Source of the DNA: an uncultured archaeon
GTDB taxonomy: Archaea; Iainarchaeota; Iainarchaeia; Iainarchaeales; GCA-2688035
Direction: 5' to 3'
Length of the DNA stretch: 64,000 nucleotides
Assembly (NCBI GenBank): GCA_964354805.1
Contig: CAYHBD010000030.1
Span: 6,800-70,799 of the forward strand
In this document: in pieces, positions 2,325-58,106 of the stretch
How positions within the stretch are numbered: position 1 is the first letter of the stretch
How the letters are laid out: the number at the start of each line of letters is the position of its first letter
Translations under genes and position numbers: made by a program
The notes under the pieces: model-generated
The model's database searches: none
Told to the model about the DNA's origin: nothing
Seen by the model: only the letters and a program-made list of their open reading frames with translations

Positions 2325-3632
2325 TCAGATTTCCCTCTCATTCTTAATTAGCTCTTCCAGCATTTGCCTTTCCCTGATTACTTTTGCCTCTCCGTTCAAC
2401 AGGAGAATGCACGCAGGCAACAGCCTTGAATTGTAATTTGATGCCATCACAAAACCGTAAGCGCCGGCGTTGAGAATTGCAAGCGTGTCACCCTCTTTTG
2501 CTGCTGGCAGCGCTCTCAGCTTTTCCCTGTTTTCGTTAAAAACATCCACGCTCTCGCACAAATTCCCTGCAACCAAAAATTTTCGCTTCAGCTTTCCATT
2601 CACATTGTCGCATACAACCATTTCATGGAAAGCACCGTAAAAAGCAGGCCTTATTAAATCATTGAAGCCAGCGTTCACTCCAATCAACGGAACATTTTTT
2701 TCCTCAACAGTATTTATTTCACACAGCAAAACACCGGCATCGCAAACAATAAAGCGCCCTGGCTCGATTGCAATCTCTGCCCTCAAACCGCTTTTCTGCA
2801 TTTTTTCAACAATTCCCTTTGCGTAACGCTGCAACGGAAAATCCTGCTGCTCTTCTCGGTATCTTACGCCCGGTCCTCCTCCGAAATCAACAAATTGCAG
2901 CTTTTTCCCTAAAATTTTTTCAACCTTTTTTGCAACGGCAATTGTTTTGCCAACAGTTTTAAGAAAAACCTGCACATCCTTGCCAAGCCAGCCTGAACCA
3001 ATGTGCTGGTGCAGACCGACAACATTGAAGCCGAGCGCTTTCGCTTCCTTGAACGCAAGCCCGATTTTTTTCTCTGGTATGCCGAATTTGATGAATTTGC
3101 CTGCGGTAATTGTGTGGCTGTGCGCTCCAGCTCCAATGCCAGGATTCCACCTAATACTTACATCACCTTTATAACCCAAGGAATGCAATCTCCTCATTTG
3201 TGAAAAGCTGTCAATGTTTATCCTCACACCCAATTCAATCAATTCCTGCAATTCGCTGTCGCTGACCGAGGTGCCTGTGAAAAGGATTTTTTCTTTTGAA
3301 AAACCTGCTTTCAGCGCAATCTTTACCTCATTCACTGAAACAGCATCAATGAATGCTCCCTCCCTCAACAGCAGCTGCAGCACTGCAATGTGCGAGTTTG
3401 CCTTCACTGCGAAATGGATTCTTGGACTTGCGCCAGCTTTGGCAAAAGCGCTTTTTATCGCCCTGAAATTTTCAATTATTCTGTTGCCATTGTAAACAAA
3501 AAGCGGCGTGCCGTACTGTTTTGCAAGCGCTACCGCGCTGTTCCCTGCAATGTATAGCTGGTTTTGCTTGACTTGCAAATGTCCGTCAATTTCCCACCAC
3601 ATCATGAACTCACCATTCAATTGCTCCAACAA
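2325..3632 (-). CDS. lysA: Diaminopimelate decarboxylase
   Basis: PLP-dependent fold III decarboxylase motifs (HFAVKAN, FGGGPGVRY, CESVD), in a dap gene cluster. An internal start MMWWEIDG at about 3605 would remove the overlap with dapF. Confidence 0.9.
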   Translation of the reverse strand: MLEQLNGEFMMWWEIDGHLQVKQNQLYIAGNSAVALAKQYGTPLFVYNGNRIIENFRAIKSAFAKAGASPRIHFAVKANSHIAVLQLLLREGAFIDAVSVNEVKIALKAGFSKEKILFTGTSVSDSELQELIELGVRINIDSFSQMRRLHSLGYKGDVSIRWNPGIGAGAHSHTITAGKFIKFGIPEKKIGLAFKEAKALGFNVVGLHQHIGSGWLGKDVQVFLKTVGKTIAVAKKVEKILGKKLQFVDFGGGPGVRYREEQQDFPLQRYAKGIVEKMQKSGLRAEIAIEPGRFIVCDAGVLLCEINTVEEKNVPLIGVNAGFNDLIRPAFYGAFHEMVVCDNVNGKLKRKFLVAGNLCESVDVFNENREKLRALPAAKEGDTLAILNAGAYGFVMASNYNSRLLPACILLLNGEAKVIRERQMLEELIKNEREI

Positions 3633-9708: not shown

Positions 9709-10668
9709 TCAGCTTCTTGCAATTGAGGCGATTTCTTCAAGGCTTTGCGCTTTCTCAAACAGGCGCATTTTTTCTGGGTTCGATGCAAAAAACCTGACTG
9801 CCTGTGTCTTCATCCTGCCCAAATAAGCGCTGATGCCGAACTTTTTGCACAATTCAAGGTATTGCAGGAAAGCCTGCTCCCTGGACAGGAGGTTTGCGCC
9901 ATCAGGCGCGCTTTTCCCAAGGCTTTTTTCCAGCGGGAAAAAAGGCTTGTTGCCCAGAATTTCCGCAAAAATTCCGGGATTGCCTATTGCCGCACTGCCA
10001 ACCATTGCAGCATCACAGCCGGTCTTTTCAAGCATTCGCTCAAAGCTAGGCTTGTTGATTACACCGCCATTCCCTATTACAGGAATGCCAACAGCTTTCT
10101 TGACGCGCTTTATTGCCACAAAGTCAACCAGGCCCCTGTTTTCCTGCTTAATGGTTCGCCCATGCACAGCAATTGCCGAAGCGCCCGCTCTTTCAATCTG
10201 CTTTGCCAGCTTGATTGTGCGCAAAACATTAGGGTCAGACCTTATTTTTGCAGTAACAGGCTTTCCAAGGACATGCCAGCAGGAAATGATTTCGCAAATT
10301 CGCGCAGGCCTCCTCAAAAGCGCGACGCCTGCCCCCTGGTTAAGCACATTACCCGAAGGGCATCCCAGGTTCAAATCCAAAAAATCGAATTCCTTTTCAG
10401 CAATAAGCAGTTCAACCGCCTTTTTCATGCTTTCAACCCTTGCCCCAAAAACCTGCATTGCCAAAGGCCTGTCCTCACCGCAGGTCTGGGCAAGCCTTTT
10501 GACAGAAAGATTGTTCCTTATAAGGGCCTCAGAATTAATCATTTCCGAATAGCACAAGGAAGCGCCCTGCTCCCTGGCCAAAAGCCTGAAGGCAAGGTCA
10601 GTAACCCTGTACATTGGCGCCAAAACAAGCCTGTTTTCCATTTTTGTGCCGGCAATGCTGAAATCCAT
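9709..10668 (-). CDS. dus: tRNA-dihydrouridine synthase (Dus family)
   Basis: LAPMYRVTDLAFR, DLNLGCP and AVHGRT motifs. The start is set at MDFSIAG. The track ORF extends to 10764. Confidence 0.8.
   Translation of the reverse strand: MDFSIAGTKMENRLVLAPMYRVTDLAFRLLAREQGASLCYSEMINSEALIRNNLSVKRLAQTCGEDRPLAMQVFGARVESMKKAVELLIAEKEFDFLDLNLGCPSGNVLNQGAGVALLRRPARICEIISCWHVLGKPVTAKIRSDPNVLRTIKLAKQIERAGASAIAVHGRTIKQENRGLVDFVAIKRVKKAVGIPVIGNGGVINKPSFERMLEKTGCDAAMVGSAAIGNPGIFAEILGNKPFFPLEKSLGKSAPDGANLLSREQAFLQYLELCKKFGISAYLGRMKTQAVRFFASNPEKMRLFEKAQSLEEIASIARS
9908..9949. repeat. Hairpin-repeat family copy inside the Dus coding region, in frame
   Basis: GCGCTTTTCCCAAGGCTTTTTTCCAGCGGGAAAAAAGGCTTG. A 9-bp stem CTTTTTTCC/GGAAAAAAG. 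The core is near-identical to copies at 52784-52815 and 58038-58070. It encodes NKPFFPLEKSLGKS. Confidence 0.75.
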
Positions 10669-10831: not shown

Positions 10832-10946
10832 AGCCCCGGGAGGGATTTGAACCCTCGACCCCCGGCTATCTCGAATTTTTCTTTTCGCACGCCTTTTTCT
10901 AAAAGGCTTTTACGAGGTCGGTGCTCTACCACTGAGCTACCAGGGC
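10832..10946 (-). tRNA. tRNA-Thr (anticodon CGU) with a 43-nt canonical 37/38 intron
   Basis: Manual cloverleaf: acceptor GCCCTGG/CCGGGGC, D arm GCTC-AGTGGTA-GAGC, anticodon loop CTCGTAA after splicing, T arm GAGGG-TTCAAAT-CCCTC. BHB motif: central helix CTCG/CGAG flanked by 3-nt bulges TAA and ATA. Confidence 0.85.
10868..10910 (-). other. tRNA-Thr intron, made of hairpin-repeat family sequence
   Basis: Sense sequence AAAGCCTTTTAGAAAAAGGCGTGCGAAAAGAAAAATTCGAGAT, with a 7-bp hairpin GCCTTTT/AAAAGGC followed by GCGAAAAG. Confidence 0.8.
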
Positions 10947-13039: not shown

Positions 13040-13861
13040 ATGCTGAACAGAAAAGGCCTTGCGAAGCAATTTTCCCAAAGCTTTTTTTCCGAAGGAAAAA
13101 AAGGCTTAGCAAAGCAATTTTTCCCAGGGGTTTTTTGCACGCGAAGCAATTTTCCCATCTTGCAAAACCCAAGGTTTTGCGAGACCTCGCAAAAGCGAAG
13201 CTTTTGCAAGGAGGCTTTTTTTGCAACGGCAAAAAAAGGCTTAAGCGAAAAAGGCCGAGCTGAAAGCCGTTTTCCCTGGGATTTTTTTGCAACAGCAAAA
13301 AAAGGCCAGGAGAGCGCGCCATTTGAGCTGCTGGTTGCTGTAATAATAATGGGCTTTGTCATATTCATTGGAACAAGTGTAATGCAGCAGGTAAATTGCG
13401 AGAAATGCAAGGGCGAAACCAATGCAAAGCTGGATCGAATGGCAACCGCGTTACAGAATGCTGACGAATCAGGCAGTATTCAACCAAACGTAAGTTTTTT
13501 TTTAAGCGGCTGCTTCAACCAACAGGAAGAAAAAATCTGGATTGAGGACGAAGACGATCCCCAAGTGTGTGCTGCCTATCATTGCGGTGAGAAGCAGTTA
13601 TGCACTTTGCTGAAATACTATGGTAATGGCTGCGGCGGGTTCAGCATCATAAAGTGCCTGGATATCACCCCTGACGCCGATTTTCCTTCCATATCAGGGG
13701 GCAGGTGCGAAGAAAGAGATGGAATGCAATTAGTGGATTTCGAGAAAAGGGAGGAGCCGATAGCAACAGGGGGCAACAAGCAGGGCAACTATTTGCTGTG
13801 GAACAAGACAGGGCAGGGCGACACTTTTTCAACAATCTGCGCTTACAGGAAAGAGGGTTGA
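13040..13861 (+). CDS. Cys-rich type IV pilin-like protein whose leader peptide carries a 249-nt repeat array
   Basis: ATG 13040 with SD AAGGTG. Removing 13059-13307 gives MLNRKGQESAPFELLVAVIIMGFVIFIG, a canonical class III signal peptide. The ORF also reads through the array without a stop. Confidence 0.6.
   Translation: MLNRKGLAKQFSQSFFSEGKKGLAKQFFPGVFCTRSNFPILQNPRFCETSQKRSFCKEAFFATAKKGLSEKGRAESRFPWDFFATAKKGQESAPFELLVAVIIMGFVIFIGTSVMQQVNCEKCKGETNAKLDRMATALQNADESGSIQPNVSFFLSGCFNQQEEKIWIEDEDDPQVCAAYHCGEKQLCTLLKYYGNGCGGFSIIKCLDITPDADFPSISGGRCEERDGMQLVDFEKREEPIATGGNKQGNYLLWNKTGQGDTFSTICAYRKEG
13059..13307. repeat. Array of hairpin-repeat family modules (249 nt) flanked by the direct repeat AAAAGGCC
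   Basis: AAAAGGCC occurs at 13051-13058 and 13300-13307. Perfect hairpins: 13081-13090/13094-13103 (10 bp), 13162-13169/13173-13180 (8 bp), 13215-13224/13229-13238 (10 bp), 13282-13290/13295-13303 (9 bp). Confidence 0.85.
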
Positions 13862-14536: not shown

Positions 14537-15037
14537 ATGAAAAACGGGGGTTTTTTGGGTCCAATTGGGGATGATTTGCCGAGCCTGATTCCGCTGCTTT
14601 TTGCTTTAATGCTTTTTTTTTATGCTTTTACATCTGCTTGGAATAATTTTGACAGGAGGAATGAGGATTTTGCCGATGACCTGGCAGTGCTCAGGGCAAG
14701 CAATGCATTGAGGGGAAACAATTATATTGCGGGAATTGAAAAATTCAATGAAAACTGCGAGACAGCGAAAGGAACCCAGAGAATGCACTTTTTGGCCGGA
14801 TTGCTGCCCTTGCCTACAGGGAAAGATGAGCAATTTGTTGGAATTGATACTGAAAAAATAGTCAGCGGCGATCAAAGCTTTTTTGAAGACTTTCAATGCA
14901 GCAGCACTGAGGAAATACCCGTGCTGGAAAGCGAAAAAAGCGTTGTTAGGTTCTTTCCTGTTGCCTTGGAAACAAAAGAGGAAAACGACAAGTTTTATGT
15001 AAAGCCGATGTTGCTGGTGGTCATTGCATGGAAATAA
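14537..15037 (+). CDS. Pilin-like / membrane-anchored hypothetical protein
   Basis: MKNGGFLGPIGDDLPSLIPLLFALMLFFYAF. Start chosen at ATG 14537. The track ORF starts at 14498. Confidence 0.4.
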   Translation: MKNGGFLGPIGDDLPSLIPLLFALMLFFYAFTSAWNNFDRRNEDFADDLAVLRASNALRGNNYIAGIEKFNENCETAKGTQRMHFLAGLLPLPTGKDEQFVGIDTEKIVSGDQSFFEDFQCSSTEEIPVLESEKSVVRFFPVALETKEENDKFYVKPMLLVVIAWK

Positions 15038-15849
15038 AGCTTGGCGAAAAAGGTCCTGTTTTGCGAAGCCTATTTTCCCCAGGCTTTTGCAACAGCAAAA
15101 GGCTGTTGCGAAGCAAAACCCATTTCCCTGGGATTTTTTGCACGCGAAGCAATTTTCCCAAGGCTTTTTCACGAAGTGAAAAAGGCTTAAGCGAAAAAGG
15201 CCAGTCCAGTTTGACTGATTCCATGTTTTTCCTGGTAATAGCCAGCATTTTGAGCACTTGGCTTTTCTATTCAAGCGCAACCTACGGCCTGACAATAGAC
15301 CAGCAAATTTCAAGGCAGGGCAGGGAGGAATACACCAAGTCTGCGCTTGAAACAATTTTGTACAGCAGCGCGCCGAGGCAGGCAGGCCTTTCTTTGGAAG
15401 AAGCATCAGAGATTGACTACCTGCTTGCGGCAATAAAAGAGGACTACGCTGATGACACTGAACTGGATGAAACAAAAGCAATTCTTTTCCAGAACATAAA
15501 TGCCGTAATGCAGCCGCTTGCAACAAACAGCAACTACCTTTTCTACATATATATTGCTCAAAAAAATAAATTTGTTGTCACTTTTTTGTACGCAAGCGAA
15601 GCAAAAAACGATGACGGCTGGAGCTTAACCGGCAACAAAATTGTTTTTTCCTGCGTGCCGCCAAGCAAGCAGGCAGTGGAAGAATTCCTGCTTACGGTTG
15701 GCAGGATGTCTGTCAGCAACAGCAGAATTCAGCTGCTTGAATCAAAAGAGCCGGCTCCTGACAGATACGATGCCCTAATCACTTTAATCACTTGGATTCC
15801 AACGCCAGTTGATGAAAGCGACCTAAACTGCACTAAATTCACTGGCTGA
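15028..15849 (+). CDS. Type IV pilin-like protein whose leader peptide carries a 147-nt repeat array
   Basis: ATG 15028 with SD GGTGG. Removing 15056-15202 gives MEIKLGEKGQSSLTDSMFFLVIASILSTWLF. The ORF reads through the array in frame. Confidence 0.6.
   Translation: MEIKLGEKGPVLRSLFSPGFCNSKRLLRSKTHFPGIFCTRSNFPKAFSRSEKGLSEKGQSSLTDSMFFLVIASILSTWLFYSSATYGLTIDQQISRQGREEYTKSALETILYSSAPRQAGLSLEEASEIDYLLAAIKEDYADDTELDETKAILFQNINAVMQPLATNSNYLFYIYIAQKNKFVVTFLYASEAKNDDGWSLTGNKIVFSCVPPSKQAVEEFLLTVGRMSVSNSRIQLLESKEPAPDRYDALITLITWIPTPVDESDLNCTKFTG
15056..15202. repeat. Array of hairpin-repeat family modules (147 nt) flanked by GCGAAAAAGGTC / GCGAAAAAGGCC
   Basis: Direct repeats at 15044-15055 and 15191-15202. 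Hairpins at 15084-15090/15095-15101 and 15164-15172/15176-15184. The 27 nt at 15134-15160 are identical to 13131-13157. Confidence 0.85.
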
Positions 15850-20245: not shown

Positions 20246-20336
20246 TGCTTCCTATAGCCCTGCAGCAATTTATTATAAATTTTCCCTCACCCCATATTAT
20301 TATCCATGGACCCATAGCCTAGTGGATAGGGCAACT

Positions 20337-20370
20337 AAAGAGGTGAGTTTTTCAATTCTCTCTTTTGCAA
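20337..20370 (+). other. tRNA-Arg intron 1 (34 nt) at non-canonical position 29/30
   Basis: hBHBh' motif: outer helix AGG/CCT, central helix GCAA/TTGC, 3-nt bulges CTA and AAG, inner helix AAGAG/CTCTT. Confidence 0.75.
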
Positions 20371-20378
20371 GCCTCCTA

Positions 20379-20444
20379 AAGCCTTTTCTTTAGAAAAGAA
20401 AAGGCTTGCGAAAAGAAATTTTTCGCTCTGCAAAAAACGGGGCT
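20379..20444 (+). other. tRNA-Arg intron 2 (66 nt) at canonical position 37/38, made of hairpin-repeat modules
   Basis: Central helix CTCC/GGGG with bulges TAA and CTA. It contains a perfect 11-bp hairpin GCCTTTTCTTT/AAAGAAAAGGC and the hairpin GCGAAAA/TTTTCGC. Confidence 0.8.
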
Positions 20445-20481
20445 AGCAGTAGGTCGTGGGTTCGATTCCCACTGGGTCCGT

Positions 20482-21003
20482 ATGGCTTGGTTAAAGCGTT
20501 TGAAGCACAAAGCCAAGAAAGCAGTTGTTGTGCTCAGGTCAAGGCCTCTGCTGAGAGACCCAACAGCTTTAGGAGTTCCAAGGGTTATTTGGAAAACGAA
20601 ATCGCATGGGAGAAGAATCATTTGGAAAAGCCCAGCAGAGCCAAGGGAAATTGAGGCAAGAAAGATTCTGCCAAAAATTGTGCCAAAAGAATGTGACACT
20701 TTTTATTTCAGGCTATCAAAGAGATACCCTTACAAAATTGGCGCAAAGCGCTGGGAGCAGTACTATGATTTGCCTTCAATGGAAGATGTTTTCCACGGTA
20801 GAATGCACAGGCGAATGAGAAAACTTCTGCGGGAAAAGAGAATATCTTTCGAAAAACTGCTGAACATGTGCACTGAAGCGGAAGAGGAATTGCACAAAAT
20901 CCTAAGGGAACACAAAGATGAATTGAATCTTGACCTTGGTCCAGACCAATTAATGGTTGGCGTAAGAAACGGCAAATTGGACCTAATTTTGGTTGATGTA
21001 TAA
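20482..21003 (+). CDS. Hypothetical basic protein
   Basis: 173-aa ORF starting right after the tRNA. No recognisable motif, and the start is uncertain. Confidence 0.3.
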   Translation: MAWLKRLKHKAKKAVVVLRSRPLLRDPTALGVPRVIWKTKSHGRRIIWKSPAEPREIEARKILPKIVPKECDTFYFRLSKRYPYKIGAKRWEQYYDLPSMEDVFHGRMHRRMRKLLREKRISFEKLLNMCTEAEEELHKILREHKDELNLDLGPDQLMVGVRNGKLDLILVDV

Positions 21004-21868: not shown

Positions 21869-22603
21869 CTAAATCCTGAGCGCGAATGTTTCCCTCTTTT
21901 TCTGTTTCCCTGTCCTGTCAACTCCAATCAGCTTGAATGTTTTCGTTGCATCTGTTTTGAATTCTTTTTCCAGCTGCTTTACAGCCAAGGCAGCTGCTTT
22001 TTTTGATCCGACTATTGCATCGATTGAGTTTTTTTTCTGTGTTGCGGAAACAATTGCGGCCAGACCGTCTCTTTTTTGCAGGGATGCGAGCAATTGCCTC
22101 AGCCTGTTGAAAGCAGCAGCTGCTTTTTCCCCCCTAAGCTGCACTATTGCCTCAAAGTAATTGCTTTTCAGCTTCATGCAAGCATCGCACTGCATTGCGG
22201 GAAAAGAGATTGTTGTTTTCCTTTCAACCAGAACAGGCGTGTTTTCAATTACGCCCTTTGCCGTTACGATTGCCTGCATTTCCTTTTCACTCAACCGCTG
22301 CAATTCAACTGACAGGGCAGCATCTGTCAGCTCCTTAACCTTGCATTTTTTTTTGACGAACTGCTTCAATAGTTCCAAGTCAAAAGCGTGCATTTTCCCT
22401 GAAAGCAAAATTTTTCCGCATTGCTTGCAGCGCTGCAACTCGATTTTTTCAGGCAACTGCAGAAGCGTGTGCTCTTTCAGGAAGCACTGGAGGCAGCTGC
22501 CCCTTACAAAAAGGCTGTCTGTTGCACCGCAGCTCGGGCAAAATAATCTGCCCAAAGCCTTTTTGCCTTTTGGCAAAAAGCCTTGGGAAAAGTTGCTTCG
22601 CAT
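21869..22603 (-). CDS. NMD3-family protein (archaeal homolog of the ribosome export adaptor)
   Basis: N-terminal double zinc motif FCPSCG...CLQCF...CKQCGK. Start set at ATG 22603, 4 nt after the upstream stop. The track ORF extends to 22645. Confidence 0.7.
   Translation of the reverse strand: MRSNFSQGFLPKGKKALGRLFCPSCGATDSLFVRGSCLQCFLKEHTLLQLPEKIELQRCKQCGKILLSGKMHAFDLELLKQFVKKKCKVKELTDAALSVELQRLSEKEMQAIVTAKGVIENTPVLVERKTTISFPAMQCDACMKLKSNYFEAIVQLRGEKAAAAFNRLRQLLASLQKRDGLAAIVSATQKKNSIDAIVGSKKAAALAVKQLEKEFKTDATKTFKLIGVDRTGKQKKRETFALRI
22551..22601. repeat. Hairpin-repeat family copy forming the first 16 or so codons of the NMD3-like gene
   Basis: Gene-sense sequence GCGAAGCAACTTTTCCCAAGGCTTTTTGCCAAAAGGCAAAAAGGCTTTGGG, with a 9-bp hairpin CTTTTTGCC/GGCAAAAAG. 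It encodes RSNFSQGFLPKGKKALG, similar to the peptides encoded by the pilin arrays. Confidence 0.75.
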
Positions 22604-24991: not shown

Positions 24992-25060
24992 TTTGCCATC
25001 ACCTCTGGTTAAAAATTATTTTTTCCTTTCATTTACCTCTTTCTTTATCTCTGTTTAAAA

Positions 25061-25294
25061 TCACTTTTTCTTTCCCTTTGCCTCTTTTTTAATTGCCTCA
25101 TTCATTTCCTTGAGCAAAGAATCAATTTCCTTTTCATCCATGCCATGCGCTTTTGCGCCCTGCTCGACTGTTTCAAAAACGGCAACATGGCAGCCAACGC
25201 AATGCAACCCCCTGCCAAGCATTACAGGCACGGCATCAGGAAACACGCTGACCACTTCGCCAAGAGTCGTATTTCTCTCAATTTTTTTAACCAT
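25061..25294 (-). CDS. DUF1858-type redox disulfide protein
   Basis: TLGEVVSVFPDAVPVMLGRGLHCVGCHVAVFETVEQGAKAHGMD. Start set at MVKKIERN. The track ORF extends through the duplicated sequence to 25399. Confidence 0.6.
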   Translation of the reverse strand: MVKKIERNTTLGEVVSVFPDAVPVMLGRGLHCVGCHVAVFETVEQGAKAHGMDEKEIDSLLKEMNEAIKKEAKGKKK

Positions 25295-25300
25295 AAGGAA

Positions 25301-25400
25301 ATCAATCACAGAAAAGTTTTTTAAATGCCCCCTGACAGCAACGTGCTCAAAGCAATCACAGAAAAGTTTTTTAAATGCCCCTAACGGCAACGTGCCCAAA
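25301..25400. repeat. Tandem duplication (2 x about 49 nt) covering the 3' end of nrdG
   Basis: CAATCACAGAAAAGTTTTTTAAATGCCCC...GCAACGTGC.CAAAG occurs at 25304 and again at 25353. Copy 2 encodes the NrdG C-terminus (HVAVRGI). Confidence 0.8.
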
Positions 25401-26081
25401 GAAAGGCTTTAACGCAGCGGCAAACTGCAGCAGTTCCTCCCTGCTGTATGCCCTGCTGCCCTGCATTTTTTTATCCAAAAGCGGAACGCTTGAATCAAAC
25501 TGCTGCAAAAAGAATTGCTCGGCGCCCTGCAGCCATTCGCCGATTGCAACCAAATCGGCTTTGCTGTGCAATGCAGGCACAATGGTTATCCTGAACTCGT
25601 ATTCAACGCCGCTTTCTTTAATCAAGTCAATGCTGCGCTGGATTTTTTGCAAATCAACCCTGGCGCCGGCTGCTTTGCTGTATTTTTCTTTCGCAGCCTT
25701 TATGTCCATTGCAATGTAGTCCACTGCTTTGGCGGCAATCAGCTTTTGCAGCATTTCCGGTTTTGAACCATTTGTGTCAATTTTAACCAGCAAGCCCAAG
25801 CGCTTGGCCTTTTTGCAGAAAGCAGGCAGCCCTGCATGCAGCAGCGGCTCTCCGCCTGAAATGCATACGCCATCCAGAAACTTTCTTCTGTCGCGAAGGA
25901 AACGCAGCGCTTCTTTTTCCGTTATTTTTACGCCTGTTTCCTTGTCCAGAACAAGCTGGGCGTTGTAGCAAAAGGGGCACCTGAAATTGCATTTTGGCAG
26001 AAAAAGCGTTGCAGCAACCTTGCCCGGAAAATCAATCAAAGTTGTCTTTTGCACTCCTTTAAAGATAAGCAAACCATACAC
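25371..26081 (-). CDS. nrdG: Anaerobic ribonucleotide reductase activating protein (radical SAM)
   Basis: CNFRCPFCYN radical-SAM cluster motif, and adjacency to nrdD. Confidence 0.9.
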   Translation of the reverse strand: MYGLLIFKGVQKTTLIDFPGKVAATLFLPKCNFRCPFCYNAQLVLDKETGVKITEKEALRFLRDRRKFLDGVCISGGEPLLHAGLPAFCKKAKRLGLLVKIDTNGSKPEMLQKLIAAKAVDYIAMDIKAAKEKYSKAAGARVDLQKIQRSIDLIKESGVEYEFRITIVPALHSKADLVAIGEWLQGAEQFFLQQFDSSVPLLDKKMQGSRAYSREELLQFAAALKPFFGHVAVRGI

Positions 26082-48171: not shown

Positions 48172-48519
48172 CTATTCCTCCAAAATGCTTTTTGACAAAA
48201 TAATCGAATTAACTATGCTGTTAACGCTTGCCCTCAGTGCGGTTGCATCTGATGCATTAATACCTATTTGCACTGCATTGTTTTTAATTTTAACATGTGT
48301 TGCGCTTCTCTTAGCATGCACTGCATTTAATTCTGGACCAATTGCTTTCAAAAAAATGCCTGCTTCTTTTTTCGGCACAGCAATGCTGATGCTCAAATCA
48401 AAGCCTTTTTTGCTTAAGCCTTTTGCTTCGCAAAACCCTTGGGAAATTTGCTTCGCCTGCAAAAAACCCTTGGGAAAAGGGTTTTGCTTACGCAAAACAT
48501 ATTCCGGTGAATGCTGCAA
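48172..48519 (-). CDS. pcc1: KEOPS subunit Pcc1-like protein with repeat-derived N-terminal codons
   Basis: The C-terminal two thirds, FDLSISIAVPKKEAGIFLKAIGPEL...IGINASDATALRASVNSIVNSIIL, match the Pcc1/CTAG pattern. TTG start 48519 with SD GAGGT 8 nt upstream. Confidence 0.65.
   Translation of the reverse strand: MQHSPEYVLRKQNPFPKGFLQAKQISQGFCEAKGLSKKGFDLSISIAVPKKEAGIFLKAIGPELNAVHAKRSATHVKIKNNAVQIGINASDATALRASVNSIVNSIILSKSILEE
48412..48497. repeat. Hairpin-repeat family copy in the 5' end of the Pcc1-like gene
   Basis: Gene-sense sequence TTTTGCGTAAGCAAAACCCTTTTCCCAAGGGTTTTTTGCAGGCGAAGCAAATTTCCCAAGGGTTTTGCGAAGCAAAAGGCTTAAGC, followed by AAAAAAGGC. Confidence 0.8.
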
Positions 48520-48682: not shown

Positions 48683-49333
48683 TTATTTTTTCTTTCGCTC
48701 TTCTTTCTTTTCTTTTGCTTTCTCTTTTCCTTTTGTTTCCTTTTCAATTCTCTTTTCTTTTCGTTCTCTTGGCGCAATTTTTTCTTTTCTTTCTTTGCCG
48801 ATTTCTTTTTCTTCGTGTTCCCCTAATTGCTTTTCCTCACTGCCGATTTGTTTTTCTTCTGGCTTGCGCTCTTTCCATTCTATTGTTTCTTTTCCTTGTC
48901 CGAAAAAGTCCCTTCTTCCTTTTCCTCGCTCTCTCCATTCCCTTCTTTCCCTGTAGATTTCCCTGCTTGCTCTTCCGCCCCATTCCCTTTTTCCCTCTGC
49001 CCCGCTTTCATCGCCTGCCTCTTCTTCTGCCCAGTCTTCTTTTGTGCTTAGCAGTTCTTTCATTGAAGGCAAAAAGCTTCTCTGGGCAACCATTTTTTGC
49101 ACAATCGAGCCAGGCAAAGTGGTGGGCAAATACGCGCCTCCTGCGAATGTGTTATCGCATTTCCTGCAGCTATAGATGCCTGGCGCTTTTCTCCTCACTC
49201 TCTCGGCTCCGCAGAACGGGCATGGGTAGTATTTGTGCTGCTTGCTTTCAATTTTAAGCAGGCTTTTTCTTATGCCAACGCCGTATCTTGCCCCATAGCG
49301 CCCAGCGGTTTTAACTTTTAAAGTGTTGCCCAT
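48683..49333 (-). CDS. rpl37ae: Ribosomal protein L37Ae (eL43) with a K/E/R-rich C-terminal extension of about 130 aa
   Basis: The N-terminal 85 or so aa, TAGRYGARYGVGIRK...YPCPFCGAERVRRKAPGIYSCRKCDNTFAGGAY, are the canonical eL43 zinc ribbon. The rest is a charged low-complexity tail. Confidence 0.85.
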   Translation of the reverse strand: MGNTLKVKTAGRYGARYGVGIRKSLLKIESKQHKYYPCPFCGAERVRRKAPGIYSCRKCDNTFAGGAYLPTTLPGSIVQKMVAQRSFLPSMKELLSTKEDWAEEEAGDESGAEGKREWGGRASREIYRERREWRERGKGRRDFFGQGKETIEWKERKPEEKQIGSEEKQLGEHEEKEIGKERKEKIAPRERKEKRIEKETKGKEKAKEKKEERKKK

Positions 49334-52689: not shown

Positions 52690-52830
52690 TTTGAAAAAAT
52701 CAATGCTTGCAAAGCAATTGCCCTTTCCCCCATAATGCCAAGCTAAAGAATTATTTGTTTTTGTTCCATTGCTTGGCATTATGCCAAGGCTTTTTTCCCG
52801 CAGGAAAAAAGGCTTATCCAAAGAAAATTG
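52690..52830. repeat. Composite palindromic element in the psmA-SBDS spacer, including a hairpin-repeat family core
   Basis: Hairpin at about 52701-52720. A perfect 13-bp stem CATAATGCCAAGC (52731-52743) / GCTTGGCATTATG (52771-52783). Family core CCAAGGCTTTTTTCCCGCAGGAAAAAAGGCTT (52784-52815). Confidence 0.7.
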
Positions 52831-57985: not shown

Positions 57986-58106
57986 TGGGCCCGACCGGGA
58001 TCGAACCGGCGACCTCCACCATGTTGAAGACCTTTTTCCCAAGGCTTTTTTCCGCAGGAAAAAAGGCTTTGTCGAGGTGGCGTCATAACCGCTAGACCAC
58101 GAGCCC
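57986..58106 (-). tRNA. Intron-containing tRNA, probably tRNA-Val (GAC). The anticodon loop assignment is uncertain.
   Basis: Acceptor GGGCTCG/CGGGCCC, anticodon stem CCACC/GGTGG, variable loop AGGTC, T arm GCCGG-TTCGATC-CCGGT. The loop 5' part is TCGACA, followed by a 48-nt insert. The best model gives loop TCGACAT, with C at position 33. Confidence 0.65.
58022..58069 (-). other. Intron of the tRNA-Val-like gene, made of a hairpin-repeat family core
   Basis: The plus strand reads CCTTTTTCCCAAGGCTTTTTTCCGCAGGAAAAAAGGCTTT. The core is near-identical to 9917-9948 and 52784-52815. Confidence 0.7.

Follow-up and report, generated by a model that had tools for sequence, protein, structure and literature searches.

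In Rickettsia, which has a reduced genome, many genes harbour small palindromic repeats that keep the reading frame, known as Rickettsia palindromic elements (RPEs; PMC10969869). The BoxC, potential intrastrand triplex (PIT) and TMECO repeats of Escherichia coli and cyanobacteria are dispersed sequences with a Y-Y-R or Y-R-R plan (Y and R being pyrimidine and purine blocks), which may fold back twice to form a triple helix; PIT repeats have no known function and differ among closely related strains in their number of copies and in their surroundings (PMC4666352). In this study, we focus on a 147-nt array of repeats lodged in the leader of a pilin-like gene (pilin-like gene 2), within a 64,000-nt stretch of contig CAYHBD010000030.1, hereafter the window, from an uncultured archaeon of the Iainarchaeota (Diapherotrites, DPANN). 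By analogy, the repeat would find its closest match in function in the RPEs, and in intragenic MITEs (transposable elements of the miniature inverted-repeat type) in general, and its closest match in structure in the PIT repeats, BoxC and TMECO. The array consists of three copies, two complete and one truncated, of a small, dispersed, structured repeat, probably of selfish type, which would be translated and then removed together with the leader. Literature searches did not find an archaeal or DPANN description of such repeats.

The product of pilin-like gene 2 starts with MEIKLGEKG, continues with 49 repeat-encoded residues and resumes with QSSLTDSMFFLVIASIL (QSSLTDSMFF onward). An earlier analysis of the bare letters (the sequence-only reading) had located the array directly after MEIKLGEKG, between the flanks GCGAAAAAGGTC and GCGAAAAAGGCC, and had stated that its removal yields MEIKLGEKGQSSLTDSMFFLV, all of which is correct to the base (coordinates in Table 1). 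Each of the other two sense frames of the array holds one stop. Unit 1 comprises a remnant of hairpin 1 (GCGAAGC), the pyrimidine block Y1 TTTTCCC (15073-15079), the linker CA, the hairpin GGCTTTTGC-AACA-GCAAAAGGC and a closing TG; unit 3 comprises GCGAAGCAA, Y1 TTTTCCC (15153-15159), the linker AA, the hairpin GGCTTTTTCAC-GAAG-GTGAAAAAGGC and a closing TT, the outer pair CA..TG of the former being compensatory with regard to AA..TT of the latter. The truncated unit 2 and its junction recur in the array of pilin-like gene 1 (13120-13157; 38 nt, 95% identical), a stretch that encloses the 27-nt identity between 15134-15160 and 13131-13157 already noticed in the sequence-only reading. That reading described the array properly, without recognising the hairpin and mirror-repeat architecture of its units.

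A profile built on the units finds about 15 of them at nine loci of the window (E<1e-3). Furthermore, the 16-mer GCGAAGCAATTTTCCC occurs eight times in the window when up to three mismatches are allowed, against a mean of 1.9 in shuffled sequences, none of 100 shuffles reaching eight. As the units differ in length, Tandem Repeats Finder picked up array fragments only. The array units are read in differing frames (AKQFSQ versus RSNFP), and the repeat therefore exists at the level of the nucleic acid, not of the protein; a protein-level repeat is ruled out, because a single array has its DNA unit in more than one frame and other loci have it in antisense.

Comparison with relatives upholds the proposal of the sequence-only reading that the array is an insertion. 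A protein search returned 28 homologues of the gene 2 product, all from Candidatus Diapherotrites/Iainarchaeum (DPANN). Orthologues at 42-50% identity carry a plain leader of about eight residues devoid of array, M..L(S/G)x(R/K)G↓QA(A/S)LTD, e.g. MAIALSQRG↓QAALTDALYFLL (the arrow marks the putative cleavage site), and four close relatives, 75-84% identical (BLASTP), bear arrays of other lengths at the same codon. The insert measures 147 nt in the window, 96 nt in L001-L003, 153 nt in L004 and L005, 48 nt (a single unit) in L006 and 135 nt in L007, each a multiple of three; array length does vary between strains, a matter that the sequence-only reading had raised. The same reading had considered an assembly artefact arising from collapsed or chimeric repeats. 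The repeats are indeed short and alike, the window comes from a metagenome-type assembly, and the exact window protein was not found in the public assemblies searched. However, five related genomes have arrays at this very codon, the frame is intact in each case, and identical arrays come from independent assemblies and samples, namely the three of L001 (JGI), L002 (Logan) and L003 (JGI), and the two of L004 (NCBI) and L005 (Logan), which leaves an artefact with a negligible probability. A contingency locus undergoing slippage phase variation was also rejected, the units being non-identical and 32-56 nt long, and all length variants keeping the frame.

The N-terminus left after deletion of the array, MEIKLGEKG↓QSSLTDSMFFLVIASILSTWLF, displays the features of a class III signal peptide, i.e. 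a short basic leader, K-G or R-G followed by Q, A or F, and a hydrophobic stretch of about 20 residues. G58, Q59, L62, T63 and D64 are invariant among the homologues, as is G-Q-x-x-L-T-D in the 17 aligned, and the sequence ATGGAAATAAAGCTTGGC of the original leader codons is kept in five out of five relatives. A true start further downstream, placing the array in the 5' untranslated region, is impossible for both pilin-like genes of the window, because there is no in-frame start between array and cleavage site and the upstream ATG is conserved. Similar N-termini are encoded by four neighbouring genes, in a cluster of small genes of like kind. Among these, pilin-like gene 1 carries its array at the equivalent site, in agreement with the earlier placement of both arrays at K-G codons, and the gene 1 arrays of the relatives L001 and L004 differ in length. 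The empty sites, CAGAAAAGGCC^AGGAG for gene 1 and GCGAAAAAGGCC^AGTCC for gene 2 (^ marking the insertion point), correspond to the K-G-Q codons of the putative cleavage site and have the common form AAAAGGCC^AG. A third pilin-like gene (AAAAACGGGGG) reads MKNGG↓FLGP in the window and holds the element at that point in L004. Two neighbouring pilin-like genes without A-run-GG at the cleavage codons have an array in no strain. In a comparison of similar signal-peptide genes, of the kind suggested by the sequence-only reading, all three genes with A-run-GG at these codons bear arrays in at least one strain, against neither of the two without it.

We can propose that the element multiplies in the Iainarchaeota lineage in the manner of selfish DNA and that its points of entry are polypurine A-run-GG sites. 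In a class III signal peptide, AAA-GGC-CAG, coding for K-G-Q, resembles the 3' end of the element, AAAAGGC, and insertion there would regenerate both the target and the K-G cleavage motif, letting further copies stack into arrays. Since units end in AAA-AAA-GGC or GAA-AAA-GGC, the K-G before Q+1 is always restored. The resemblance between target and 3' end would explain the apparent "target duplication" and the stacking of units, and would account for the flanking direct repeats (GCGAAAAAGG..). The suggestion of the sequence-only reading that an A-run-GGC microhomology is targeted thus holds in part, with the qualification that the units themselves end in AAAAGGC, so that the target mimics the 3' end of the element. 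Within genes, only frame-keeping copies would persist, and the 16-90 extra basic residues would lengthen the cytoplasmic leader and be cut off by the prepilin peptidase, leaving the mature protein unchanged at a small cost.

Frame preservation is not restricted to leaders. All eight measured coding inserts are multiples of three (48, 54, 54, 96, 135, 147, 153 and 189 nt) and are open in the host frame. In the window, the tRNA-dihydrouridine synthase (Dus) gene (9709..10647, minus strand) hosts a copy with a net gain of 54 nt in frame, encoding FFPLEKSLGKSAPDGANLL just after the TIM barrel; an orthologue of 94% identity (P0030/L117) and 10 others lack this insert, and the Dus gene of L118 holds a further 54 nt nested within the element. 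The NMD3 gene of L001 contains a 189-nt internal in-frame array of antisense units (three of 48 nt and one of 45 nt), with none there in the window, the empty site being GTGAAAA^AGAAATG. As read from the sequences, the filled and empty sites of Dus and NMD3 in relatives prove in-frame insertion, and an HD-domain protein of L013 provides a further case. The phenomenon is therefore not confined to leaders or pilins; the idea that only leader insertions survive selection retains part of its value but is too strong, because units also lie in frame inside Dus (window) and NMD3 (L001), in tRNA introns and in spacers.

Copies at gene starts or between genes were also noticed in the window. For pcc1, it is possible that translation starts at a TTG right after the unit, which aligns to position 2 of the Pfam Pcc1 model, and the same perhaps applies to NMD3, for which the Pfam model begins at residue 36. 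In an Iainarchaeum metagenome-assembled genome (MAG), a CTP-synthase-like ORF (open reading frame; L009, 1245-3062) has about 80 extra in-frame codons at its 5' end, including two sense units, which represent either an N-terminal extension or a miscalled start.

Table 1. Features of the window discussed in the text, with their coordinates and strands.
Feature	Coordinates	Strand	Description
Pilin-like gene 2	15028..15849	+	ORF of 273 aa; class III-type signal peptide, leader broken up by the array
Original leader codons MEIKLGEKG	15028..15055	+	Overlap the stop codon of the upstream gene; hold the 5' flank repeat GCGAAAAAGGTC (15044-15055)
Array	15056..15202	+	147 nt, i.e. 49 codons, in frame; stop-free in the gene frame only
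Unit 1, complete	15062..15107	+	nhmmer E = 6e-7
Unit 2, truncated (GCGAAGCAAAACCCATTTCCCTGGGATTTTTTGCAC)	15108..15143	+	Without purine 3' arm
Unit 3, complete	15144..15190	+	nhmmer E = 9e-10; RNA hairpin predicted
3' flank repeat GCGAAAAAGGCC	15191..15202	+	Restores E-K-G right before Q+1, the putative prepilin-peptidase cleavage site
Pilin-like gene 1	13040..13861	+	Array at ~13059-13307, equivalent site, MLNRKG^QESAPFELLV
Double-hairpin piece, 54 nt	13158..13211	+	Lies inside one unit, separating Y1 (TTTTCCC-A) from Y2 (AGGCTTTTT); inverted repeat I3
Full element in Dus	9885..9943	+	Hairpin 1 + TTTTCCC + hairpin 2; nhmmer E = 4.5e-11; antisense to gene
Single unit, extreme 5' end of NMD3	22555..22602	-	Just after ATG or just upstream of an alternative TTG start
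Two units and small hairpin	48400..48500	-	rpoP-pcc1 spacer
Intergenic unit	52778..52815	+	Between proteasome-alpha and SBDS-like genes (both minus), hence antisense to them
tRNA (Val-like)	57986..58106	-	Rfam tRNA, 45.8 bits; anticodon-loop intron of ~48 nt
tRNA-Thr(CGU)-like, intron-bearing	10832-10946	-	Rfam; GCCUUUUAGAAAAAGGC then GAAAAGAAAAA
Candidate third intron-bearing tRNA	20307..20485	+	Insert of ~97 nt with variant element (TTCTTTTC..CCTTTTCT..AGAAAAGG, minus strand)

With regard to tRNAs, the window has two intron-bearing genes and probably a third, all with the repeat or a variant of it in the intron. In the Val-like tRNA, the element forms the intron and lies in antisense (plus strand, 58026-58072). 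In the third candidate, the T-arm and the 3' half of the acceptor match Rfam weakly, and removal of about 97 nt lets ARAGORN recognise a tRNA. ARAGORN recovers one of the three or four tRNAs of the window and none of the intron-bearing ones, because the introns block it; Rfam recovers the first two intron-bearing genes only, and no Rfam family besides tRNA reaches its gathering score in the window, only chance-level matches being present around 20250-20560. In-silico removal of the element recovered eight anticodon-loop introns (window 58026-58072, L032, L033, L045, L046, L057, L062 and L072), from several phyla, and in all eight the element is antisense to the tRNA and starts 1-3 nt past the 5' splice site, its orientation in the pilin-like genes being sense. 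In other respects, copies were observed beside tRNA-Ala between 16S and 23S in rRNA operon spacers of Iainarchaeum and Micrarchaeota genomes (L008 4215-4248, L054 4254-4289 and L086 623-656).

The presence of the element in tRNA introns of the window and of at least seven other archaea raises the question of whether the arrays are archaeal bulge-helix-bulge (BHB) introns, excised from the mRNA by the tRNA-splicing endonuclease and RtcB as in crenarchaeal cbf5, in which case the extra residues would never be made; DPANN endonucleases are known for their acceptance of relaxed substrates (PMC3239211). However, a spliced intron would be free of length and frame constraints, whereas each of the eight coding inserts has a length divisible by three and no stop in the frame of its gene, and the copies of tRNA introns are antisense (8/8) and those of pilin-like genes sense. 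A brute-force scan for helix-bulge motifs at the array borders scored 8-9/10, equal to random windows, and did not rank the true tRNA sites first, so that it does not discriminate. Mainly on frame preservation, splicing of the arrays was rejected, and we regard it as very unlikely. Since the eight inserts keep the frame and the array is open only in the sense frame of its gene, we argue that the arrays are translated rather than spliced.

If the array is translated, the peptide itself might be of use, either as a basic cytoplasmic extension or through several K-G sites controlling prepilin targeting or processing. The repeat-bearing leaders are strongly basic (12 K+R versus 4 D+E in 59 residues for gene 2, 18 versus 6 for gene 1), and each complete unit ends in KKG or EKG. 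Nevertheless, the frame in which units are read changes within one array and is antisense in other genes, neither sequence nor length is conserved between close strains in which the mature protein is 75-84% identical, and distant orthologues work with a leader of about eight residues, so that a functional peptide appears scarcely probable.

A regulatory role was weighed as well. Oligo-T tracts are intrinsic terminators for archaeal RNA polymerase, and the arrays contain runs of T5-T7; the RNA of the array region is predicted to be unusually stable (-64.8 kcal/mol, z = -3.6 versus shuffles). RNA hairpins or triple helices, together with these tracts, might attenuate transcription or translation of minor pilin genes, with the number of units tuning expression between strains. 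The differing array length of close strains, the copies at gene 5' ends (NMD3, pcc1 and many other loci) and the Nanoarchaeote arrays in leaders of membrane-anchored ORFs would fit such a device. On the other hand, the same units occur in either orientation, inside enzymes, tRNA introns and spacers, and all length changes are multiples of three, which leaves no room for on/off frame switching. Copies within ORFs are sense in 29 cases and antisense in 22, and tandem intergenic ones sense in 10 and antisense in 21, counts that rest on crude ORF calls, some of them spurious (e.g. 14606..15526 on the minus strand), and support no more than the lack of a strong orientation bias relative to transcription. 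As no strict orientation rule relative to genes emerges, except in the tRNA anticodon-loop introns, a DNA-level or selfish element is a better fit than an RNA signal tied to orientation; the data do not call for regulation, which we consider unlikely.

The architecture of the element is shared by its copies. One unit measures 45-57 nt and comprises an optional small hairpin (UUUUGC-GNA-GCAAAA), Y1 (..UUUUCCC), a 2-nt linker, the main hairpin and two nucleotides pairing with the linker; in the main hairpin, a loop joins the pyrimidine arm (Y2) to the purine arm (R), which ends in AAAAGGC. The Watson-Crick stem is paired in 92.8% of cells versus 76.6% in shuffles, with a covariation score of 0.45 versus 0.13, and the dinucleotides that follow CCC and GGC covary (pair 16:41, A-U 62, C-G 20, G-C 20; pair 17:40, A-U 87, G-C 21). 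The gap between the ends of the search pattern always forms a hairpin, although the pattern did not specify one. Y1, being the mirror image of Y2, fits R in parallel register, U opposite A and C opposite G; this combination of mirror and inverted repeats is the sequence signature of a potential intrastrand pyrimidine-motif triplex, or H-DNA. As in PIT repeats, the second of three consecutive blocks is mirrored by the first and reverse-complemented by the third.

The parallel Y1:R register is matched at 55.0% versus 45.3 +/- 1.6% in shuffles, none of 500 reaching the observed value and every slid register being lower, and a separate test of this register gave 49% versus 30.6 +/- 2.1%. The 5' flank of TTTTCCC also mirrors the purine arm (ttttttcTTTTCCC with AAAAAAGAAAAGGC, cttttctTTTTCCC with GAAAAGAAAAAGGC, ttcttTTTTCCC with AAGAAAAAAGGC). 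Members with a homopurine arm mirror it perfectly over 5-7 extra positions (L012 7/7, L027 7/7, L089 5/5), and where a G interrupts the purine arm, it shifts together with the C of Y1. Antiparallel pairing as an account of the mirror is ruled out by asymmetric cases. An independent hairpin scan revealed other sequence families with the same three-block plan; when all pyrimidine-purine hairpins were tested for mirrors in general, antisense copies and T-runs of low complexity diluted the signal, and the test served only to find new families. Some points weigh against a triplex in the units of the window: the covariation and register statistics include related copies, the register alignment was self-built from fixed columns, and the window subfamily mirrors only UUUUCC(C) versus AAAAGG(C), allowing 5-6 triplets. 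The evidence for a triplex comes mostly from other subfamilies, because the mirror letters of the window subfamily were fixed by the search pattern. The potential to form one, as judged from the sequence, is thus strongest for the wider family and weaker for the units of the window. A Spirochaetes MAG (L042) possesses at ~4225 and ~7400 triplex-type Y1-Y2-loop-R repeats of its own, with the common loop GGACAAGC (e.g. TTTTCTTT..TTTCTTTT..AAAAGAAA).

A scan for the pattern TTTTCCCNRRGNTTTTN{6,16}AAAAGGC, with one genome per species, gave more than 109 loci among the matches listed, nearly all of them archaeal. The DPANN genomes among these matches belong to Iainarchaeum, Micrarchaeota, Aenigmatarchaeota, Woesearchaeota, Nanoarchaeota, Parvarchaeota and Altiarchaeota, and the other archaea to Thermoplasmata, Thaumarchaeota, Methanobacteriota and Hydrothermarchaeaceae. 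A broader interpretation, which we put forward tentatively, is that of an undescribed archaea-wide family of triplex-forming repeats, whose fold, in which Y1 occupies the groove of the hairpin Y2:R (whether in single-stranded DNA, H-DNA or RNA), would be recognised by a propagation or maintenance machinery. Such repeats might home to polypurine sites mimicking their own 3' end, e.g. the K-G codons of class III signal peptides, and give rise, in DPANN and other archaea, to tRNA introns, to structures of rRNA spacers and to protein extensions in frame.

Other observations concern composite or distant arrays. A 54-nt double-hairpin piece, with the letters TCTTGCAAAACC..GGTTTTGCGAG / CTCGCAAAAGC..GCTTTTGCAAGG, lies at the same internal point, between TTTTCCC-A and AGGCTTTT, in three different genes, namely pilin-like gene 1 of the window, Dus of L118 and L119 (L118 ~3150-3205) and the third pilin-like gene of L004 (2492-2545); it represents either a second element targeting the first or a longer member of the family. 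In a Nanoarchaeota MAG (L067 1685-2885), two adjacent membrane-anchored ORFs, coding for a small membrane protein and an SLT/transglycosylase-like protein, carry arrays (three 60-nt units and two units, respectively) ahead of the hydrophobic segment of the N-terminal leader, and the phenomenon therefore arose in a second phylum.

Several considerations weigh against a selfish repeat that is translated and removed with the leader. We infer translation, cleavage and near-neutrality from nucleotide sequence only, and stop-freeness alone is weak evidence, most frames of the array having 0-3 stops. Neither terminal inverted repeats (TIR), nor a clean target-site duplication (TSD), nor a transposase was found, the transposase scan covering part of the 64-kb window, and mobility is therefore deduced from polymorphism only. 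The label of pilin, given in the sequence-only reading, is supported by the N-terminal motif and not by profile searches, since the gene 2 product, whether its array is kept or deleted, matches no Pfam or NCBIfam model, pilin and flagellin N-terminal models included (E up to 10). Similarly, no prepilin peptidase, pilus assembly ATPase or pilus assembly membrane protein was found among the 10 large ORFs of the window that were scanned. Finally, a host function rather than selfishness could be the reason why tRNA introns and rRNA spacers of many phyla harbour the element.

The window also contains repeats of other kinds. A ribosomal protein L37Ae/L43e-like ORF (48683-49333, minus strand) has a lysine/glutamate-rich C-terminal extension of about 130 residues, encoded by imperfect tandem repeats of TTTTC/CTTTT type (48688-48813). 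Spacer tandem repeats unrelated to the element are present at 25003-25091 (45-nt period, 2 copies) and 25299-25401 (50-nt period, 2.1 copies at 90% match).

If the proposed explanation is correct, reduced DPANN genomes carry an abundant, structurally constrained repeat that differs between close strains, occupies tRNA introns, remodels coding sequence without loss of frame and makes signal-peptide leaders up to ten times longer. It would be an archaeal counterpart to RPEs and to BoxC/PIT repeats, with a covariation clear enough for the direct design of triplex experiments, and the arrays would constitute a natural test of how much extra leader is tolerated by the prepilin peptidase and the membrane-insertion machinery. 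There would also be a warning for annotation: gene callers would deliver 270-aa "pilins" with leaders of 50-90 residues and enlarged NMD3 and Dus proteins, and tRNAs with element-bearing introns would be missed by ARAGORN and sometimes by Rfam.

Compared with the RPEs, the archaeal element is likewise small, multi-copy, palindromic with hairpin potential and non-coding, and lies in frame in unrelated genes, including conserved enzymes, with empty sites in relatives and an extra peptide that the protein tolerates in the case of RPEs (PMC10969869) and would tolerate here; the reduced-genome lifestyle of the host is a further likeness. However, its units of 45-57 nt are shorter than the RPEs (~100-150 bp), it forms tandem arrays, has a mirror-repeat third block and a preference for A-run-GG targets, and it also occupies tRNA introns, rRNA spacers and many archaeal phyla. 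Neither a TIR/TSD pair nor a partner transposase was seen in the scanned part of the window, so that the sequence does not establish the element as a MITE proper. With PIT repeats, the element shares three consecutive blocks, the Y-Y-R / Y-R-R plan and strain-variable contexts. TMECO is G/C-rich (CCCTCNCCC..GGGNGAGGG..GGGNGAGGG), bacterial and mostly intergenic, and its triplex has been shown in vitro, whereas the archaeal family is A/U-rich with a CC/GG clamp and a hairpin extended by covarying outer pairs, is often found in frame within coding sequence and in tRNA introns, and has a triplex that is predicted from its letters.

In Thermoproteales, intron transposition has been reported, with similar sequence in introns of different tRNAs. 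The archaeal element resembles these "transposing" BHB introns in forming the bulk of several anticodon-loop introns and in its similar sequence across tRNAs and genomes; its copies in protein genes differ by keeping the frame and by an orientation opposite to that of the tRNA-intron copies, and nothing shows that the element supplies the splice motif. Repetitive extragenic palindromic sequences (REPs) and bacterial interspersed mosaic elements (BIMEs) with REP-associated tyrosine transposases (RAYTs), as well as IS200/IS605-derived palindromes, likewise form short imperfect hairpins, with a conserved tag left single-stranded at the 5' foot; they are highly repeated, occur in clusters and vary between strains. 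Unlike them, the archaeal element lacks a GTAG or CGTC tag, the sequence examined showed no Y1 transposase, and its copies are often intragenic, REPs being extragenic. The archaeal element is thus set apart from the known kinds by its composition, its covarying hairpin, its tandem arrays, its preference for A-run-GG, including the codons of signal-peptide cleavage sites, and its location in tRNA introns and rRNA spacers.

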